Source: a virus
IMG/VR virus record: IMGVR_UViG_3300034069_000822
Reading direction: 5' to 3' (one strand)
Length of the DNA: 64,000 bases
This document shows positions 27,588-35,641 of this stretch, one piece after another. The notes below the pieces were generated by a model that was given only the letters and a program-made list of their open reading frames with translations, did not search any database and was not told the DNA's origin. The position numbers and the translations under genes were made by a program. How positions within the stretch are numbered: the stretch's first letter is position 1; each line of letters starts with the position of its first letter.

Positions 27588-28634
27588 TCAAACGCCCAAT
27601 AGCTGCGCTACTGCCGCTGGGTATCTAATGACCGCACCCCAACTACCCGCCGTCTTCTTCTGCTTCCAGGCCGAGAGCTCGCGAACGATGGCATGATCCC
27701 GGGATTTTTCATTGAAGGAGCAGAAGCCGGTGTCCTGACCGTCGAAACGATCGGCGATGAGCTGGACGACATTGCCGGCACCGGTGGCATAGCGCGGCGA
27801 GGTCTTCACCTTCAGCTTGGGGAAGTTCTTGGCCAGAAGATCGGTGACATTGACGCCGAACGAGTTGGTCGAGGTCATGGCCACGGCAGAGCCCGGAGGC
27901 AGCGCCAGGGTCATGTCATCAGTCGCCTCAACACGGCCGGCGGTCTGTGCCACCAACTTGTTGAAGATGGCCTGGATGTCCGCGAACACTTCATTGGCCG
28001 TGGCATTGATGACGCCGGCGCCCGTGATCCAGGTCACGCCACCCGCTGCCTTCGTGGCCGGGGTCAGCGGAGCCGACAGGGCCGGATCATTGAGCAGGCC
28101 ATAGTTCTGCAGACCAGCAACACCGTTGTGATAGGTGTAATCCTGGAACTTGCTCAGCGTTAGTGCGGCCGACATCTGCTTTTCAGCAACCCAGTTCAGC
28201 TTTGCCGTCGCCATGCGAGCCTGTTCAAGATCGCCATATTCGATGATGGTCTGGAACAGATAGGACTGGCGCTGCGGGAACGTGGCATTCGCGTCCGACA
28301 TGCCGACATTGTTCTGGTCGCCGTAGCTGGACACCTCACCGGTGTTTTCCACGACGAGGAACATGGCTGTCTGGGTCGTCCAGTCGCCTTCCTTGCGTTC
28401 GCCGAGGATGTCAGCGCCCTTGTTGGGAGACTGAAGAACCCGGATCACTTCCGGATCGACATAGGTCGTGAACAGCGCCGGGACACCGCTGGAGCCGGGA
28501 CCAACGGCGAGCGTCGGCTGGGCATCCAGTGCGACCTGATAGTTTCGCTTGTAATCGAGCGGAAGGTAGTCCTGAGCGAGGACGACAATACCCCAGTCCT
28601 GCTCAAGGCGGGTGAAATCAACGTGCTTGATCAT
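27588..28634 (-). CDS. Major capsid protein (DUF2184-like)
   Basis: G.W......F...E.TG....YGD, GVAGLQNYGLLNDP, FNEK.R.H...Q.K..G.WG..IR.P. Confidence 0.9.
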   Translation of the reverse strand: MIKHVDFTRLEQDWGIVVLAQDYLPLDYKRNYQVALDAQPTLAVGPGSSGVPALFTTYVDPEVIRVLQSPNKGADILGERKEGDWTTQTAMFLVVENTGEVSSYGDQNNVGMSDANATFPQRQSYLFQTIIEYGDLEQARMATAKLNWVAEKQMSAALTLSKFQDYTYHNGVAGLQNYGLLNDPALSAPLTPATKAAGGVTWITGAGVINATANEVFADIQAIFNKLVAQTAGRVEATDDMTLALPPGSAVAMTSTNSFGVNVTDLLAKNFPKLKVKTSPRYATGAGNVVQLIADRFDGQDTGFCSFNEKSRDHAIVRELSAWKQKKTAGSWGAVIRYPAAVAQLLGV

Positions 28635-28645
28635 GGCTGCCTCGC

Positions 28646-29146
28646 TTAGATCGTGTCGGTCATTTTGATGAGTTCCGACGCAGCACCAGCGGTGGCCGCA
28701 TAGAACTTGGTCTCGATGCTGCCGGCGACAGTGGCGCCAGCGGCTGCGAAGGAGATCACACCAGTCGTGAGATTGGCGAACGCCTTCATGCCGACCGTGG
28801 CCGCACCGGCGCCGGCATTGTTCACCCAGACATCACCGCCGTTGATGATATCGCCGGCCGGGAAGCCGGATGGGATCGTGTTGCCGAACTCGGTCAGATA
28901 CGTCGTGATGATGGCCTGTTCGGTCCGGATCACGATACCAGTGGGCAAACCCGAACCGGTGTTGTTCAGGAGCCGCGGAACGCCATTGGTGTCATTGGCC
29001 GTCCATGCGAACAGACCGACGGTGACGCCATTGGCACCGGCGCAAAAGCCGCCTTCCACGGTAAGAGCCGAATGGCGCGGATTGACGGAGGCGACCTGAC
29101 CGGCAACGGCCGGCGCCTGGGTGAGATTGACCTGCCTCTGGAACAT
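28646..29146 (-). CDS. Head decoration/cement protein
   Basis: FQRQVN..QAPAVAG..AS.NP; lies between scaffold and capsid. Confidence 0.8.
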   Translation of the reverse strand: MFQRQVNLTQAPAVAGQVASVNPRHSALTVEGGFCAGANGVTVGLFAWTANDTNGVPRLLNNTGSGLPTGIVIRTEQAIITTYLTEFGNTIPSGFPAGDIINGGDVWVNNAGAGAATVGMKAFANLTTGVISFAAAGATVAGSIETKFYAATAGAASELIKMTDTI

Positions 29147-29158
29147 TGCTGGATCTCC

Positions 29159-30904
29159 TTACTTGAGGCGGCCGGCGTTCGGGAAACGCTGCGAATAAGC
29201 GTCCTGAGCGGCGGCATCCATGGCAGTGGTGACGGGAGCGGCGGAAGTCGAAGGCACGGGGAGAGCCTTCAACAGGGAGCGATATGCCGAGGGGTGAAGA
29301 CCCGCGATATCGATCTTCATGGCATCCAGGGCGTGACGATAGACCTTGTCGGCGCTGTCGCAGGCCACGGCGATTTTGCCGACGTAGGGGCGAACCTCGT
29401 CCTCGGCGATGCGGATGTCGTTGAACTGTTTCCGAACACGCTTCTCGACGGCTTCGGCAGAGGTTCGGATCGCTTCATCCATGGCGGACTTGCTGACCTT
29501 CTCCTCCTTGTCGTCCTCATCATCCTCGTCTTCGGCGACTTCCTCGCCGTCGTCCTTGGCGCCCTTGGCCTTTTCGTCTTCTTCTTCGTCCTCGGCCTTC
29601 TTGTCTTCATGCTCCTCGTCTTCGCCGCGAGGCTCCATTTCGTCCTGGGCGATGAGCGTCTTGATCACCTCGTCGATATTGGCGTCTGCCGCCAGTTTAC
29701 CGTCGAGGGCAGTTTTGAACGCCGCGACCCTCGCCGCGCGCGCCTTTGCTTTCGGCGAAGTCGCCATTGTGATGTTCTCCATGGGACGTGGGGTGAGTGC
29801 GCTATCTTGGACAAGAACGTCCGGGCCTGCGCGGCCCTGCTCAACGAGGGCTAAATGATTACCCCCGATGTCTCTCATCGTGCCGTCAAAAGCTTCCCCA
29901 TCCGGCGTAGTGCCCGGTGTCATATCCGGGCGGTATCGATACCCGGCTGAAAGCTCTCGTTGTTCGTCGGTCTCGATCAACTCGATTGCCTTGCCATCCC
30001 ACACCGTCAACGGCGCGGTGAGATAGGGCGCGTCGAAGCTGACCGGGCTTCCGATTGTGCCGACGGTTAGTTCCTTGGGATGATCATCGGCGTTGACCGG
30101 CTTGTGGCGGATCAAGAGCGGCTTGCCCTCAAAGCTCGACGCGGCACGCGCCAGTTCCTTGGGATCACGATACAGCCGGTAGATGTGCTCTGGATCGAGG
30201 CCAAGCCGTTCGAAATCTGGAACCTCACGGCCATAGTATGGGTTGACCACCGCCTTGCTAATCGGGGTCCGCTCGACGTGGAGGTGGCCGTCGGCATCGA
30301 TCGAGCGAACCGTGGCCCGGTCCAACGCGATGCAATCCTGCGCACCCTTCACGCGATCCAACCAGTTGTCATCGATTTCCTCGAAGACCTCGGGTCCGAA
30401 TTCCAAGGGGCCGTCATATGGCGCGACCTTGGTCAGATCGACGCCCGCTCCGAAATAGGTAATCGTGACGTGCGGCCTATATTGCGGCCAATCCCAAGAT
30501 GCGCCGCCGTCCTCAAAGGTGCGGTGGCGTTCCGCGAGTTCGTCACTCTGAAACAGAAGGCAGACCGCTCCCTTGTCACCAAGCTCCTCGACCGATCGGG
30601 GGCCGAGGATGGCGACGGCAGTGTTCTCGCGCGGCTTGAACCGGTCCCAATCGACCGGCTCGTTGCTGTAGGCCACTGTCACATGGAGATCGTCGGCCTT
30701 CAGCGTCTCGTCGAAGCCCTGCAGGATCGCCCATGCCAGGAATTCACGGGTGTTCAGCAACGAGCGGCGAACATAGAGCGGGCGTGCTTCGGCCGCGTCC
30801 TTTCCAACGAACTCTTCGCCAACGGCCCTTGGGATGCCGAGCGTAGATTTGCCAGCGGCGGCGGCAAACATCGCCTTCCGCTGAGCCTCAGAGACAGCCG
30901 GCAT
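29159..30904 (-). CDS. DUF2213 prohead protease/scaffold with an N-terminal Acb1-like 2H phosphodiesterase domain
   Basis: DUF2213 core (R..D.DG.L.V, ELSAGY, NHLALV..GRAG) from aa ~195; two HxT motifs LHVTVAYS (aa 74) and PHVTITY (aa 145); acidic scaffold tail. Confidence 0.85.
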   Translation of the reverse strand: MPAVSEAQRKAMFAAAAGKSTLGIPRAVGEEFVGKDAAEARPLYVRRSLLNTREFLAWAILQGFDETLKADDLHVTVAYSNEPVDWDRFKPRENTAVAILGPRSVEELGDKGAVCLLFQSDELAERHRTFEDGGASWDWPQYRPHVTITYFGAGVDLTKVAPYDGPLEFGPEVFEEIDDNWLDRVKGAQDCIALDRATVRSIDADGHLHVERTPISKAVVNPYYGREVPDFERLGLDPEHIYRLYRDPKELARAASSFEGKPLLIRHKPVNADDHPKELTVGTIGSPVSFDAPYLTAPLTVWDGKAIELIETDEQRELSAGYRYRPDMTPGTTPDGEAFDGTMRDIGGNHLALVEQGRAGPDVLVQDSALTPRPMENITMATSPKAKARAARVAAFKTALDGKLAADANIDEVIKTLIAQDEMEPRGEDEEHEDKKAEDEEEDEKAKGAKDDGEEVAEDEDDEDDKEEKVSKSAMDEAIRTSAEAVEKRVRKQFNDIRIAEDEVRPYVGKIAVACDSADKVYRHALDAMKIDIAGLHPSAYRSLLKALPVPSTSAAPVTTAMDAAAQDAYSQRFPNAGRLK

Positions 30905-31134
30905 AGAATTCTCGCAGTGTTAGGAGTGCGGTCTATTCGACCGTGAGACGCAAGCGGTCGAGTATCCAACGCGCCAATCTGTCGTAGTCGGCTTCTGAAG
31001 GTTGCCAACCGAAGAGAGCACAAAGCTTCCAGAAGACCATGCGGGCCCGTAGTTTCGCCCGGAGCGCCAATGGCACGGCTATTCGGATTTCGCTGACAAT
31101 CATCACGAAACCCTCTTTTCACTCGGCGTCTGGG

Positions 31135-31329
31135 CTACCAGCCCATCGCGACAGCGGACCAAATGGCGAAACAAATGCCAAAGATCATGATCATGCCAGG
31201 ACTGCGGAACGAGCCACCGGGCAGATCGTAGTTTGTTCGACGATCGATGGAGCGCATTACCTTCAAGGCGCGGGCCCTTTCAGCCGGGTCTTTTGGAAGA
31301 ACCGGTGGGGGCGATGCAATCAATCCCAT
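31135..31329 (-). CDS. Small membrane protein, 64 aa
   Basis: TGATG coupling to the upstream gene; C-terminal TM. Confidence 0.55.
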   Translation of the reverse strand: MGLIASPPPVLPKDPAERARALKVMRSIDRRTNYDLPGGSFRSPGMIMIFGICFAIWSAVAMGW

Positions 31330-32156
31330 CACGAAAATCCCTTGATCACCGGCCTGCCGACGCATCTGCAGTTGATCAGTTCGCCGGGCTGAATGAATTG
31401 CTTCACAGCGGGATCGTACCAACCTTTCGAAACCTGATAGCGTGTCTTTTCGCGCCCGGCCTTCAGATGTGTATGGCGGGGCTCCCTGGCGGCACCGCTG
31501 TGCGTCCAGATGGCCTCGTCGATCCCGACTTCCTGCAACCTGACCCGATTGAAAGCCGCCGTAGCCTTGTTGTTCTGATCCAAGGATATAAACGCGGCCC
31601 GGCGCTTGGTGACGCCCAGCCTTGTCTCCAGATCGGACGCCAGTTGCCCGAGATCGCGGCCGGTCTGCACCGATCGCATCACCATTCCCTCGACCTGGTC
31701 CAGATACTGGGCGGGGATCGATTTGATCAGGGCAACATTCTGGTGAACCGTGGCGTCGACAACATCCCGCATCACCGGCGTCATCTTGAACTCGACCGAC
31801 ATGCCGCCGTCGCGAAGAATCTTCTTCAGCGCCGCGGTGGATCGTTTCTCAACCGATTGCGCGAAGTAGGCTGCCAAGTTCTCGGCTGCGGTATCGAACT
31901 TCTTCAGCCACTGCGCCGAAAGTTGTTTCATGGTGCGCCGAAGCACATCCGCCGGCGTCTCGTCCATTGCAACACGTGGCTCGTTCGCTCGATACGACGC
32001 CTTGACCCAGTACATCACACTGACGTGCATGGCCTCGACGAGACGATCAAGCTTCTTCCGGTATGCTTCAGCGATCCCGACGTTTGGTCGAACCGGGCGA
32101 AGCACCTTTTCCGTCTTGCTCCGGGGCGCTCGCTTCCGGCTTTGCAGGCTCGACAT
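31329..32156 (-). CDS. Minor head morphogenesis protein (SPP1 gp7/Mu gpF family)
   Basis: LIKSIP.QY, RA..I..DQ..K, W.HS....PR..H, PGELINCRC. Confidence 0.88.
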   Translation of the reverse strand: MSSLQSRKRAPRSKTEKVLRPVRPNVGIAEAYRKKLDRLVEAMHVSVMYWVKASYRANEPRVAMDETPADVLRRTMKQLSAQWLKKFDTAAENLAAYFAQSVEKRSTAALKKILRDGGMSVEFKMTPVMRDVVDATVHQNVALIKSIPAQYLDQVEGMVMRSVQTGRDLGQLASDLETRLGVTKRRAAFISLDQNNKATAAFNRVRLQEVGIDEAIWTHSGAAREPRHTHLKAGREKTRYQVSKGWYDPAVKQFIQPGELINCRCVGRPVIKGFS

Positions 32157-32234
32157 CGCGATCCTTCAGCGTATCAGCGATTGGCCGATCTTTCGGCGTT
32201 CTCGCGTTGATGACATCCCAGAGATCAAGCTTGA

Positions 32235-33800
32235 TCACGCCGCGGCCTTTTTCCCGTCGTCGAATAGCCCATTTATAGGATGGCCGCCCTTCGGCTCAAG
32301 GCCTTCTTCCTCCTCAATGAGGAGGTCCGGCACTTCGTCCGGATCGAGGTTTTGATACATGCTGTCTGGATCGCTTGCTAGGCTACTGCGCGCTTCCTCT
32401 GGCGAGACAACACCGGAATCGATATCAATCTGGCGGGTTTCGGCCTTCGTCTTCTCGACTTCAGCCAGGCCCTTCTCGTCGAGAGACCACAGCGGCTCGA
32501 ATTCGAAATCGATGCCATCGTCGGTTTCACCCCACAGCGAAAGCATCACCAAACCTAAGAGGGCATGCAAGTTCTGGCGATAAAGGTCCTCCTGGAAGCT
32601 GTGTGTCCAGTCATAAAACGACCGCAACTCACCTTCCGACGATGCGTTCAGGCCCGCCGGCTGGACGCCGAGCAGCTTCACCGTTGGGATATGGCTAACG
32701 GATGCCATATGCTCCTGTGATTGAGCCTGGAGCGCGTCGAGGCCACTGAGTGGCGACGAGACATTCTCGAACTCCTCCGCCTCTTTGTCGATCATCAGCA
32801 AACCGCGATTGGATCGCGTATTGTTGAACATCGCCGCGCGGGCCAGCATGCTGTCAGCCGAACCACCGCTCAGAACGGCATCCATTCCTGTCTTCAGAAC
32901 GAACTGCGTAAACGACGTGATGATGTCGTTGACGCCCTGCCGAGTTTTCAACCAGTTCTCGACATAGGGATACGCCATCTGTGACAGCGAGATGCCCCCG
33001 AACGAATAGGCCGGTTTCAGCAGATCCGGCACCGGGCGGCCGATAAACGTCAGCAACCGTGTCTTGTGGACGCTCCTGCCCATCACGTTCCAGGATTGTG
33101 GGTCGTACCAGCCATCCTCAAAAGGATCGGCCGCATTGTAGCCCGTCGGGTATATCCAGACCGGCTCGATGAGCTTCAACTTCTTGATGCTGCCCTTTCC
33201 AATTTTGGCTGCCGAAACCTTGTCCCAGCCATCGCCGATACTCTTGGCCATCTCTTCGGGATTTTTGGAATCGCCGGTATCGATGCTGATATGAGCTCGC
33301 CCGAAGTACCCGTCGGTCTCGGCGACCTTTTTGAACACCGCCCTGACATTGAGGCGCTTGAACTCCGCCTCGAGTTCAGTGATCCGCTCAGCCTTGTCCT
33401 TCTCTTGGGCCTTATTCTTGGCCGTAAATCTGATCCAGCGGCGAGTGCATTCCCCGGCGATGATCTCCGACATCATCCGATATTCCGGACGCTGCGCGAG
33501 TTCGGCCAGGACCGGGTAGCCCATGAAGGCCGAACCCTGGTAGCCGAACGTTGCCGCAGCGCTGGCATAGGCATTGGCGGCCCAGCCGTTGATGCTGTCC
33601 ATCGCCGTATCCATGGCGATGGCTTTGTCATGCGTTCCAACCAACGGGGGATGGACTGCAGCCTTGAACGGCCGGACTTCCGCCTGAACGACGCGCGTCG
33701 CGGCAACAGCCTCCTGCGATACCTTCATGACCTGTTGAGCAGGTTGCGCCACCTCGGCCGTTACTATTTCGGCCTTCCGGCGCCAGAACCAAGACAACAT
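32235..33800 (-). CDS. Portal protein, DUF1073 family
   Basis: FMGYP.LAELAQ.PEYR, IP.VKLLG..P.GLNASSEGE.R.FYD. Confidence 0.9.
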   Translation of the reverse strand: MLSWFWRRKAEIVTAEVAQPAQQVMKVSQEAVAATRVVQAEVRPFKAAVHPPLVGTHDKAIAMDTAMDSINGWAANAYASAAATFGYQGSAFMGYPVLAELAQRPEYRMMSEIIAGECTRRWIRFTAKNKAQEKDKAERITELEAEFKRLNVRAVFKKVAETDGYFGRAHISIDTGDSKNPEEMAKSIGDGWDKVSAAKIGKGSIKKLKLIEPVWIYPTGYNAADPFEDGWYDPQSWNVMGRSVHKTRLLTFIGRPVPDLLKPAYSFGGISLSQMAYPYVENWLKTRQGVNDIITSFTQFVLKTGMDAVLSGGSADSMLARAAMFNNTRSNRGLLMIDKEAEEFENVSSPLSGLDALQAQSQEHMASVSHIPTVKLLGVQPAGLNASSEGELRSFYDWTHSFQEDLYRQNLHALLGLVMLSLWGETDDGIDFEFEPLWSLDEKGLAEVEKTKAETRQIDIDSGVVSPEEARSSLASDPDSMYQNLDPDEVPDLLIEEEEGLEPKGGHPINGLFDDGKKAAA

Positions 33801-33809
33801 GAAGCTTCC

Positions 33810-35273
33810 TCAGATTCCAGGCATTGCCGTCTGTGTCACCGCCGTCGGGCTGATGATCATCGGGCGCTTGGCATGCGAATTGTCCGCAGCGATCACAGCA
33901 TCCGCCAGGTTGTGAGACTTCACGCCCAGGTCCTTCTTGAGCTTCACCTTCGGCACGACCCGTTTTTTGCCCTCGGTTTCAACCCACCACGGCACGCATA
34001 GCTCGGTGAATAGTGCGTCGAGTTTGGCAACACCCATCCCCGAAGAGAACGATAGAACGTCCTCAGGCTTGATGGCGTGGCCCCGCGTCACCGCATTGAA
34101 CGTCAACATCGCGCGGCGAGCCGTGTTGGCCCACGCCTGTGCCTTGCGGTTCAGATACTCGTCCTTGTTGAGCGGGCTTTGCCGATTGTAGGGATCGCTC
34201 GGCTTATCAGGATCTTCCACCGCGCCGCCGGCATGGAATGCGTAGTGCTGAACCTTCGCTTGGTTTTCACGGTTCTGCTCATCGATGTAGCCACCGACGA
34301 AAGCACCCACACCGATCGTGTCGTAAGAGACTGTCGCTCCCATGAGTTTGGCTTTGGCCCAAACCCGCTTGGCGTTCTGAACAAGTTCATCCTTGCCAGA
34401 TGCCCAGTCTTCGGCGTCGAAGAATATGCCTCCGATCTTGTCGGCAGTGGCGCAATTATCCTCGCCGTCATCGGCAGGATCGAAGCCGATCGTATTCCGG
34501 CCGGTCAACGTGACATTCAGGACGGTATGCGCATCAACGCAGGCATCCAGCCAACGCCGCTTGAAGATCGAAAGCTCGCTATCGCCGAGTGGTACGCCAC
34601 CGTAAACGTGCTCGAACTTCTCAGGCTCGCGCTCTTGCATTGCCGCAATGTCGCGCTTGGCCTTGTCCGAGAGGAACGGGTTTTCCGAGTAGTCGATCTT
34701 GTGGACTAGGCAGTGCTCGGGGGTGCTTACAACGAAATTCTTCCACACATAGTCCGTAACGAATTTCGGATTGAAGAGCAGGATCGTGAGGCTGTCCTCT
34801 TTGCGGATCGTCGGCGCGATAACGACCCACTGCTCTTCCGTAAGTTTCTCCGCCTCCTCCACCCAAAGGATGTCGATGTCCGACGTGCCTTTGATGTCGT
34901 CGAGGTTTCGCTCGATCCCGTAGAAGATGAACTCGGAACCGGTCGCCTTGTGGACGATCGTCGTCTTCATGACGTCGAACGCGGCACTGAGCCCGAGATG
35001 ATTTATGGCCCACTTCAGTTCAGTGTAGACCGATTCCTGAATGCGATTCTGAAAGCGCCGGATGCAAAGAACGCGCATCTTGACAGTCAGGTGATTGATC
35101 AGCCTCACCAACTGGCAGGCGGTATCCCTCGTCTTCGAACTGGATCGACCACCGTGCAGGACAGCAATGTCGACGCTGCCGAGGAACACCTCTTCCCAAA
35201 AGTCATAAAGCGCCGGGTTGGTGAGGTGCGTGCTGTCCTCTAACTCTTCTCGCTGCGCAGCACGTCGCGCCAT
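33810..35273 (-). CDS. terL: Terminase large subunit (PBSX family)
   Basis: HGGRSSSKT Walker A, CIRRFQNRI.ESV, LWVEEA, FNP, GFDPAD. Confidence 0.93.
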   Translation of the reverse strand: MARRAAQREELEDSTHLTNPALYDFWEEVFLGSVDIAVLHGGRSSSKTRDTACQLVRLINHLTVKMRVLCIRRFQNRIQESVYTELKWAINHLGLSAAFDVMKTTIVHKATGSEFIFYGIERNLDDIKGTSDIDILWVEEAEKLTEEQWVVIAPTIRKEDSLTILLFNPKFVTDYVWKNFVVSTPEHCLVHKIDYSENPFLSDKAKRDIAAMQEREPEKFEHVYGGVPLGDSELSIFKRRWLDACVDAHTVLNVTLTGRNTIGFDPADDGEDNCATADKIGGIFFDAEDWASGKDELVQNAKRVWAKAKLMGATVSYDTIGVGAFVGGYIDEQNRENQAKVQHYAFHAGGAVEDPDKPSDPYNRQSPLNKDEYLNRKAQAWANTARRAMLTFNAVTRGHAIKPEDVLSFSSGMGVAKLDALFTELCVPWWVETEGKKRVVPKVKLKKDLGVKSHNLADAVIAADNSHAKRPMIISPTAVTQTAMPGI

Positions 35274-35641
35274 GTCCGGCTTTCTGTCTGGATCGGGCCA
35301 CCTTCTGGACCTGAGACCTCAGTCTTCGTCGGGGCATGACTGCCCTGCATCTTGTTGGCCTCAGCGATGGCAGAGACGGCCACTCGGGCGTCGTTCTTCT
35401 CGGCGGCATCGGAGATACGCTTGAGGGCCGCAAGCCTGTCCACGGCCGTCCATTCGGCTTTCTCGGCGACTCTTTCCTGCTTCTTTCGGATCAAATCCGC
35501 GATGTCAGGTTTCGTCAGGTTTTCGGACCCGACACTCCGCGCCGTCTTCTCGCTGTACCCAGCGCGTATCGCTGCCTGGGTAGCATTCAGATCCACTAGG
35601 TATTCCGCGACGAAGCGCTGCTGCTTGTCAGTGAGATTCAT
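35240..35641 (-). CDS. terS: Terminase small subunit
   Basis: LT.KQ..FV.EYL.DLNATQAAIRAGYS.KTA...G.ENL.KP. Confidence 0.93.
   Translation of the reverse strand: MNLTDKQQRFVAEYLVDLNATQAAIRAGYSEKTARSVGSENLTKPDIADLIRKKQERVAEKAEWTAVDRLAALKRISDAAEKNDARVAVSAIAEANKMQGSHAPTKTEVSGPEGGPIQTESRTWRDVLRSEKS

Follow-up and report, generated by a model that had tools for sequence, protein, structure and literature searches.

An Acb1-family phosphodiesterase module on a predicted DUF2213 prohead protease-scaffold, a candidate anti-CBASS cargo of the phage head

Why would a phage join an enzyme of the Acb1 family to a protein that is predicted to build its head? CBASS, an antiphage system in which cyclic oligonucleotides serve as signals, is among the commonest bacterial defenses. 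The question is raised by one gene in a 64,000-nucleotide stretch of viral DNA (IMG/VR record IMGVR_UViG_3300034069_000822; hereafter the window, meaning the whole stretch that was analyzed). Its open reading frame, 29159-30904, encodes 581 amino acids (translated from 29162-30904) and lies on the minus strand, as do all other features of the window given here. The gene consists of a leader, an Acb1 module, a DUF2213 protease core and a scaffold tail, and is matched by the Pfam families PF23474 and PF09979. We are almost certain that an Acb1-family module with intact catalytic residues is here joined in frame to a DUF2213 protease-scaffold.

The module covers aa 41-187 (30344-30784). A preliminary description, made from the letters of the DNA, had placed an Acb1-like 2H phosphodiesterase at 30347-30784 (aa 41-186), with two HxT motifs 71 residues apart. 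Both motifs were read again in the translation, H74/T76 in DLHVTVAYS (H74-V-T76, 30677-30685) and H145/T147 in YRPHVTITY (H145-V-T147, 30464-30472, inside GASWDWPQYRPHVTITY), together with the GASWDWPQY and GPLEFGPE blocks that had also been named. The proposed identity was borne out by the nearest fold, which was that of Acb1, and by Pfam: PF23474 matched aa 42-183, covering positions 2-143 of its 144-position model, with 122.6 bits (cut-off 27) and E=1.4e-35, much more than chance would give. In the same Pfam search of this protein, the LigT-type profiles stayed under their cut-offs: 2_5_RNA_ligase2 scored 19 bits against 27, and LigT_PEase was not reported. Among the PHROGs, the front part of the protein matched phrog_755 and the C-terminal end of the portal family phrog_146. 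A sequence search of the PDB retrieved, at E=2e-22, the portal of cyanophage Pam3 through its C-terminus (8HDS, aa 466-619) and, at E=1.4e-9, the Acb1 of Erwinia phage FBB1 (7T26). In these alignments the GAS(Y/W)D(Y/W)PxYRPH block and the two HxT motifs have their counterparts; FBB1 Acb1 matches the first motif with its own first HxT, and the second with GASYDYPDYRPHITLSY. The Pam3 match and many NCBI records also show that Acb1 domains on DUF1073 portals, which the preliminary description had mentioned as a possible precedent, are real.

To describe conservation, we aligned 40 homologous modules from varied carrier proteins, with about 50% identity to the module of the window. T76 and H145 were invariant, and H74, T147 and W181 were at least 90% conserved. 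An AlphaFold2 model built from this alignment had a mean predicted local distance difference test (pLDDT) score of 88.5. The comparison with Acb1 and LigT that the preliminary description had suggested placed the model nearest to Acb1: in Foldseek against the PDB, the first two ranks were 7T26 (apo) and 7T27 (with 3'3'-cyclic GMP-AMP, 3'3'-cGAMP), with E=2e-9 and TM 0.61/0.72. The next match was a phosphodiesterase of Burkholderia phage BCSR5, for which structures with open and closed lids are available and on which our full-text literature search found no paper. E. coli LigT trailed at E ~1e-4 (LigT matches began at E=9e-5).

In Acb1, the two HxT motifs form a tetrad, aromatic residues provide stacking, and the C-terminus serves as a lid, whose tryptophan W147 stacks on the substrate (Hobbs et al. 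2022, PMC9117128). In the protein of the window, W181 (30362-30364) aligns with a tryptophan near the C-terminus of FBB1 Acb1, although its segment here is not a free C-terminus. From this alignment and its conservation, W181 is a candidate lid residue that may be equivalent to W147. Hobbs et al. number the residues of interest Y12, W74, F107, E141 and W147; of such features, our claims from alignment concern the HxT motifs and the C-terminal tryptophan only. By analogy with the Acb1 enzymes of T4 and FBB1, we infer that the module would hydrolyze CBASS signals that are 3'-5' cyclic di- or trinucleotides. An anti-CBASS enzyme of this family would be expected to cut them 3' of adenosine and to rescue phage from CBASS.

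An intact DUF2213 protease/scaffold had been named as the fusion partner, and this held as well. PF09979 matched aa 200-368 from the first to the last of its 167 model positions, with E=3.9e-51 and 173.8 bits (cut-off 22), and PHROG 2229, 'head maturation protease', matched the back part of the protein with E=8e-131. We modeled aa 188-385 with AlphaFold2 (pLDDT 89.5). The DUF2213 core (aa 188-372, 29789-30343) gave weak matches in Foldseek (best E=1.7e-3), all of them to herpesvirus assemblins or T4 gp21; in VIA-align, the assemblins reached Z 7-10 and T4 gp21 (5JBL) Z=10.7, with 129 residues superposed at a root-mean-square deviation of 2.9. H267 (30104-30106), S319 (29948-29950) and H350 (29855-29857), the candidate catalytic residues, were invariant across 55 diverse DUF2213 sequences, and S319 aligns with S121 of the T1-like protease. 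Behind the core, a scaffold-like C-terminal region (aa 373-581, 29162-29788) with an acidic tract (aa 428-468, 29501-29623) was read from the sequence. The matching half of the T1-like proteins is an alpha-helical scaffolding domain (Richmond-Buccola et al.). Pfam's newer name for PF09979 is Pa193_gp24, after a member of the family that binds the capsid interior and was found in virions by mass spectrometry; the Pa193 paper describes gp24 as a putative scaffold, and the word protease does not occur in it. The carrier is thus predicted, from the models and these family relationships, to be a serine prohead protease with an acidic, helical scaffold tail that would act inside the procapsid.

Is the N-terminal enzyme a fixed part of this protein? 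A search with the DUF2213 and scaffold part alone retrieved relatives that included P0263, which is 99% identical over this part and has a NUDIX domain in place of Acb1. By blastn, the window and L002, the contig of P0263, were 95.7% identical from 30343 down to 25694, without detectable similarity at 30343-31327, and 81% identical at 31327-35302 (terL, portal and MuF). The mosaic breakpoint at 30343, the edge of similarity, opens codon A188 (30341-30343) and coincides with the Acb1/DUF2213 domain junction. This junction also borders two larger modules, terL-portal-MuF at 81% and, at about 96%, a stretch that begins with the DUF2213 core and reaches to the tail genes.

The leader, the core and the cargo tell different stories of descent. 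By leader, the protein of the window (P0001) pairs with the NUDIX protein P0264 (85%), and P0003 pairs with P0263 (93%); by cargo, P0001 pairs with P0003, both carrying Acb1 (86%); by core, P0001 pairs with P0263 (99%) and is only 52% identical to P0003. The leader thus assorts independently of the cargo. Because these relationships are discordant, the slot that holds the cargo is exchangeable. Other DUF2213 proteins carry an ADP-ribosyltransferase (many Klebsiella prophages), NUDIX alone, NUDIX and Acb1 in tandem (P0156), or no cargo. Judged from these sequences, the N-terminus of the protease-scaffold is a recombination-bounded slot for an enzyme, either Acb1, NUDIX or ADP-ribosyltransferase. 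The leader (aa 1-40, MPAVSEAQRKAMFAAAAGKSTLGIPRAVGEEF..., 30785-30904) is missing from bare DUF2213 proteins and from fusions to S78 proteases, and a Pfam search with aa 1-45 gave no family at E<=0.01; it has a possible likeness to the DUF3008 signature, which Pfam did not match at that threshold. Two variants of the leader (…SEAQRKAMFAAAAGKSTLGIP…EF) exist, each of which occurs with Acb1 and with NUDIX cargo.

We then asked how widely such modules are joined to head proteins. A search with the module matched 2053 cluster representatives, 437 of them at E<=1e-30, and the best 150 of the 2053 were examined for size; nearly all of these were parts of larger proteins, up to 3794 aa. Acb1 stands at the C-terminus of three portal families (PF06381, PF04860 and PF06074) and at the N-terminus of DUF2213, HK97-type S78 and XkdF-type S78_2 proteases. 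It also lies within polyvalent proteins, either as portal, Acb1, NUDIX and ADP-ribosyltransferase (ART) in one chain or together with ART-PolyVal, and Acb1, NUDIX and ADP-ribosyltransferase all follow portals in single polypeptides. In 80 species-representative genomes with this Acb1 subfamily, the carriers were portals in 72, DUF2213 in 4 and other large proteins in 4; a standalone copy was found in none of the 80. A second tally gave portals in 101 of 120 fusions. On a tree of the modules, the protease-borne (N-terminal) and portal-borne (C-terminal) versions were split with 99/98 support, and the carrier type changed 6 times, against 22 times expected with shuffled labels, suggesting that the protease-borne lineage is old and cohesive.

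Among 50,697 phage records, no DUF2213-Acb1 fusion was found. Two 'prohead proteases' of cultured phages that matched the module were rejected, being standalone Acb1-like proteins and not fusions: gp129 of Roseobacter phage DSS3P8 (L087:2507-2959, 150 aa), annotated 'prohead protease (HK97 family)', and ZHS_4 of Edwardsiella phage vB_EpM_ZHS (L086:2116-2715, 199 aa), with the same 'prohead protease' label. The label was probably transferred to these standalone genes from Acb1-protease fusions, and is then an annotation artifact. In P0059, a DUF1073 portal-Acb1 protein of Pseudomonas aeruginosa, arginine replaces the first catalytic histidine (AEDLRVTVAYS), and some head-fused copies of Acb1 may accordingly be inactive. 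Very large carriers of Acb1 were also seen (P0251, 3794 aa; P0261, 2659 aa; P0246, 2061 aa; P0131, 1836 aa), and P0131 and P0128 had no further Pfam domain at E<=1e-4. P0034, P0038 and P0102, of 515-582 aa, have roughly 350-420 residues behind an N-terminal Acb1; the rear parts of P0034 and P0038 had no Pfam family, and P0102 was judged from precomputed Pfam calls only. The modules of these three proteins cluster with the protease-borne ones on the tree, and their carriers may represent an unrecognized protease/scaffold family.

The DUF2213 family is linked to CBASS in its own right. The 370-aa 'head maturation protease' of T1-like phages (Drexlerviridae) is a PF09979 protein, with 95 bits for that of phage haarsle. 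In Bas11, S121 is the catalytic serine of this protease-scaffold; Bas04, Bas05, Bas11 and Bas13 evade type I CBASS when the protease-scaffold carries substitutions, and the scaffold domain of Bas13 gives CBASS-dependent toxicity by itself (Richmond-Buccola et al. 2023/2024). T4 gp21 cuts a disordered loop of a type II CBASS CD-NTase (cGAS/DncV-like nucleotidyltransferase) and thereby activates it (Hobbs and Kranzusch, 2026 preprint). Neither of these two texts mentions Acb1 on a protease. With Acb1 in the slot of the family to which the T1 trigger belongs, the protein that raises the alarm may be the one that destroys the signal, in the same place, at the same time and in the same copy number. 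We put this forward tentatively and regard it as doubtful.

What, then, could the fusion do? We consider it somewhat probable that the module is an anti-CBASS phosphodiesterase carried as cargo: made late, in as many copies as the scaffold, it would enter the procapsid and then be either released by maturation cleavage or retained and delivered with the DNA. The DUF2213 backbone would provide a serine prohead protease and a scaffold tail working in the procapsid, with the leader and the Acb1 module grafted on its N-terminus. Through the fusion, Acb1 would be produced late in infection in the amounts of a scaffold, and the protease would carry it, as a folded 17-kDa domain, into the procapsid interior. 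There it might be freed by maturation cleavage near residue 188, or might be kept in the head and reach the next cell with the DNA. By either route, Acb1 would be on hand at or before the time when prohead-protease activity sets off CBASS.

An alternative, the first of the two roles proposed in the preliminary description, is that the protease-scaffold sets off CBASS and that Acb1 in cis matches it in timing and amount, 1:1, in the cytoplasm, so that packaging is irrelevant. We think this unlikely, although several of the observations above speak for it: T1-like protease-scaffolds belong to DUF2213, and S319 aligns with their S121; T1-like mutants escape type I CBASS, and a scaffold domain alone is CBASS-toxic; the closest solved fold, T4 gp21, activates a CD-NTase by cleavage; and Acb1 sits on three protease families, DUF2213, S78 and S78_2. 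On the other hand, about 90% of the fusions in the subfamily are on portals (72/80; 101/120) and not on proteases, the DUF2213 slot also takes NUDIX or ADP-ribosyltransferase, neither of which is known to be connected with CBASS signals, and a near-identical phage manages without Acb1 in its slot. Since most fusions are on portals and since NUDIX and ADP-ribosyltransferase fill the same slot, a general logic of head-interior cargo fits better than a protease-specific one. The cargo might also be a mere passenger, that is, a mobile anti-defense cassette at a permissive gene start, whose join has no mechanistic meaning and whose domain is cut off or works anywhere. The slot is indeed highly recombinogenic, bare DUF2213 proteins function without cargo, and standalone Acb1 proteins such as T4 57B are fully functional. 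We nevertheless hold this to be highly improbable, because the subfamily is standalone in 0/80 species genomes, its partners are only head-interior proteins with fixed polarity (N-terminal on proteases, C-terminal on portals), and the protease-borne lineage persists down to about 46-50% identity.

A further possibility concerns the substrate, and would leave the module a head-borne effector that is not directed against CBASS. It might instead act on RNA 2',3'-cyclic phosphate ends, as in LigT/ThpR-like repair, on 2'-5' oligoadenylates, or on the cyclic oligoadenylates of type III CRISPR. HxT/HxT chemistry is common to 2H enzymes, PHROG 755 is labeled 'RNA ligase', and the sub-threshold 2_5_RNA_ligase2 match (19 bits), the LigT-type fold matches (E ~1e-4) and the low identity to tested Acb1 enzymes point the same way; RNase-like action is among the alternatives listed by Iyer et al. 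2017. Even so, the Acb1 model beats the LigT-type models by 100 bits, the nearest structures are Acb1 and another lidded phage phosphodiesterase, and the GASWDWPxYRPH block and the C-terminal tryptophan match Acb1. Iyer et al. 2017 also separate these 2H versions from any RNA ligase association. A substrate of this kind appears quite improbable to us.

Some points weigh against the proposal that Acb1 is carried as anti-CBASS cargo. Identity to characterized Acb1 proteins is low (about 26-31%). The lid of the solved Acb1 structures ends freely at the C-terminus, whereas here W181 is followed by the protease domain seven residues on; tethered in this way, the lid could be hampered in closing if the junction is neither cut nor flexible. 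We know of no cleavage site for DUF2213 proteases, and inspection by eye of the Acb1/DUF2213 junction in the 40-module alignment revealed no conserved motif for cleavage. Finally, the cryo-electron microscopy paper on Pam3 contains no description of the C-terminal domain of the portal.

The gene lies in a head gene module (27588-35273) that Pfam recognizes by Terminase_3, Phage_portal_3, Phage_Mu_F and XM1_gp53/Phage_cement. Its order is terL (33810-35273), a DUF1073 portal without Acb1 (32235-33800), MuF (31329-32156), the fusion gene, a cement protein (28646-29146) and the putative major capsid protein (27588-28634), and it is identical on public contigs. A prophage head-assembly gene with a late-type product and an exchangeable enzyme cargo is the best explanation of this arrangement that we can offer from sequence. 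The public contigs annotate the same gene as 570 aa with M12 as the start; we favor M1, because the first 11 residues are kept in the homologs P0006, P0009 and P0013. Between MuF and the fusion gene is a gap of 424 nt (30905-31328) in which the public contig calls no gene. A possible open reading frame of 57 aa (30933-31106) follows an AGAGGG Shine-Dalgarno-like motif in this gap. The gap falls within the segment that has no DNA similarity to L002, and at the same position this sister phage has an unrelated 77-aa gene (L002:5702-5935).

Recent work has placed CBASS activation at prohead assembly, and here the best-known anti-CBASS enzyme sits in a family implicated as a trigger. The locus thus provides a natural system to ask whether head-fused effectors are packaged and delivered, whether fusion of a countermeasure to a trigger matters for protection, and what the NUDIX and ADP-ribosyltransferase cargoes target. 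If the raiser of the alarm is also the destroyer of the signal, the near-isogenic Acb1 and NUDIX phages are natural swap experiments, setting cargo against host signaling defense.

How does this protein compare with those already known? Acb1 itself (the T4 gene 57B product; Erwinia phage FBB1, 7T26/7T27; PF23474) is the best match in family and fold, and shares with the module the 2H fold, the catalytic tetrad, the GAS-aromatic-D-aromatic-P-x-Y-R-P-H block and the C-terminal tryptophan. Acb1 stands alone, with about 150 aa, whereas the module is internal to a head protein of 581 aa. The T1-like protease-scaffolds share PF09979, the layout with the protease at the N-terminus and the helical scaffold at the C-terminus, and the aligned serine (S121/S319). 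They differ in being about 370 aa long, without N-terminal cargo and only about 29% identical, and what is known of them is a role in determining or triggering CBASS, not the carriage of a countermeasure.

Closest in kind are the portal-Acb1 fusions, which include Pam3 gp3 (8HDS), those of the Pseudomonas phages phiPSA1, MR15 and psageB2, and those of the Rhizobium phages RHEph04-06. Their modules belong to the same subfamily, with 46-58% identity, and the fused end of the portal faces the capsid interior. In these proteins the module is C-terminal, has a free lid and is present in about 12 copies per virion, whereas here it is N-terminal on a protease-scaffold, a protein that is produced in far more copies and normally undergoes processing. 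NCBI names many of the DUF1073 portal fusions 'anti-CBASS protein Acb1 family protein'; our full-text literature search, for Acb1 with portal, fused or prohead protease, found no description of a fusion between Acb1 and a head protein.

The general idea was put forward by Iyer et al. In their 2017 paper (PMC5512222), 2H phosphoesterase domains on MuF or portal proteins are proposed to be packaged and injected, and maybe to degrade nucleotide signals of host defense; their 2022 paper (PMC9503650) makes the same proposal with SMODS (CBASS) named explicitly, and gives Nudix on MuF, portal and a capsid-processing serine peptidase. The gene described here fits this scheme of polyvalent effectors (2H, Nudix and ART on MuF, portal or capsid-processing peptidase), and Acb1 was found, beside other effectors, on DUF2213, S78 and S78_2 proteases as well as on the three portal families. 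In the portions of the two papers available to us, the peptidase fusion is given for Nudix and not for 2H, and in that of PMC5512222 DUF2213 is not named. PMC5512222 also covers T4 Alt and the internal proteins, counter-defense or takeover enzymes that are loaded into the prohead, cut there by its protease and sent into the cell together with the DNA. In Klebsiella prophages, an ADP-ribosyltransferase also fills the DUF2213 slot. The T4 proteins are separate and bear a short capsid-targeting sequence, whereas the cargo here is covalent with the protease-scaffold. Head-fused counter-defense enzymes are therefore already known as a computational prediction. What this locus adds is the DUF2213 carrier, the near-isogenic exchange of Acb1 and NUDIX at the exact junction, and the family link to a CBASS determinant implicated by experiment.

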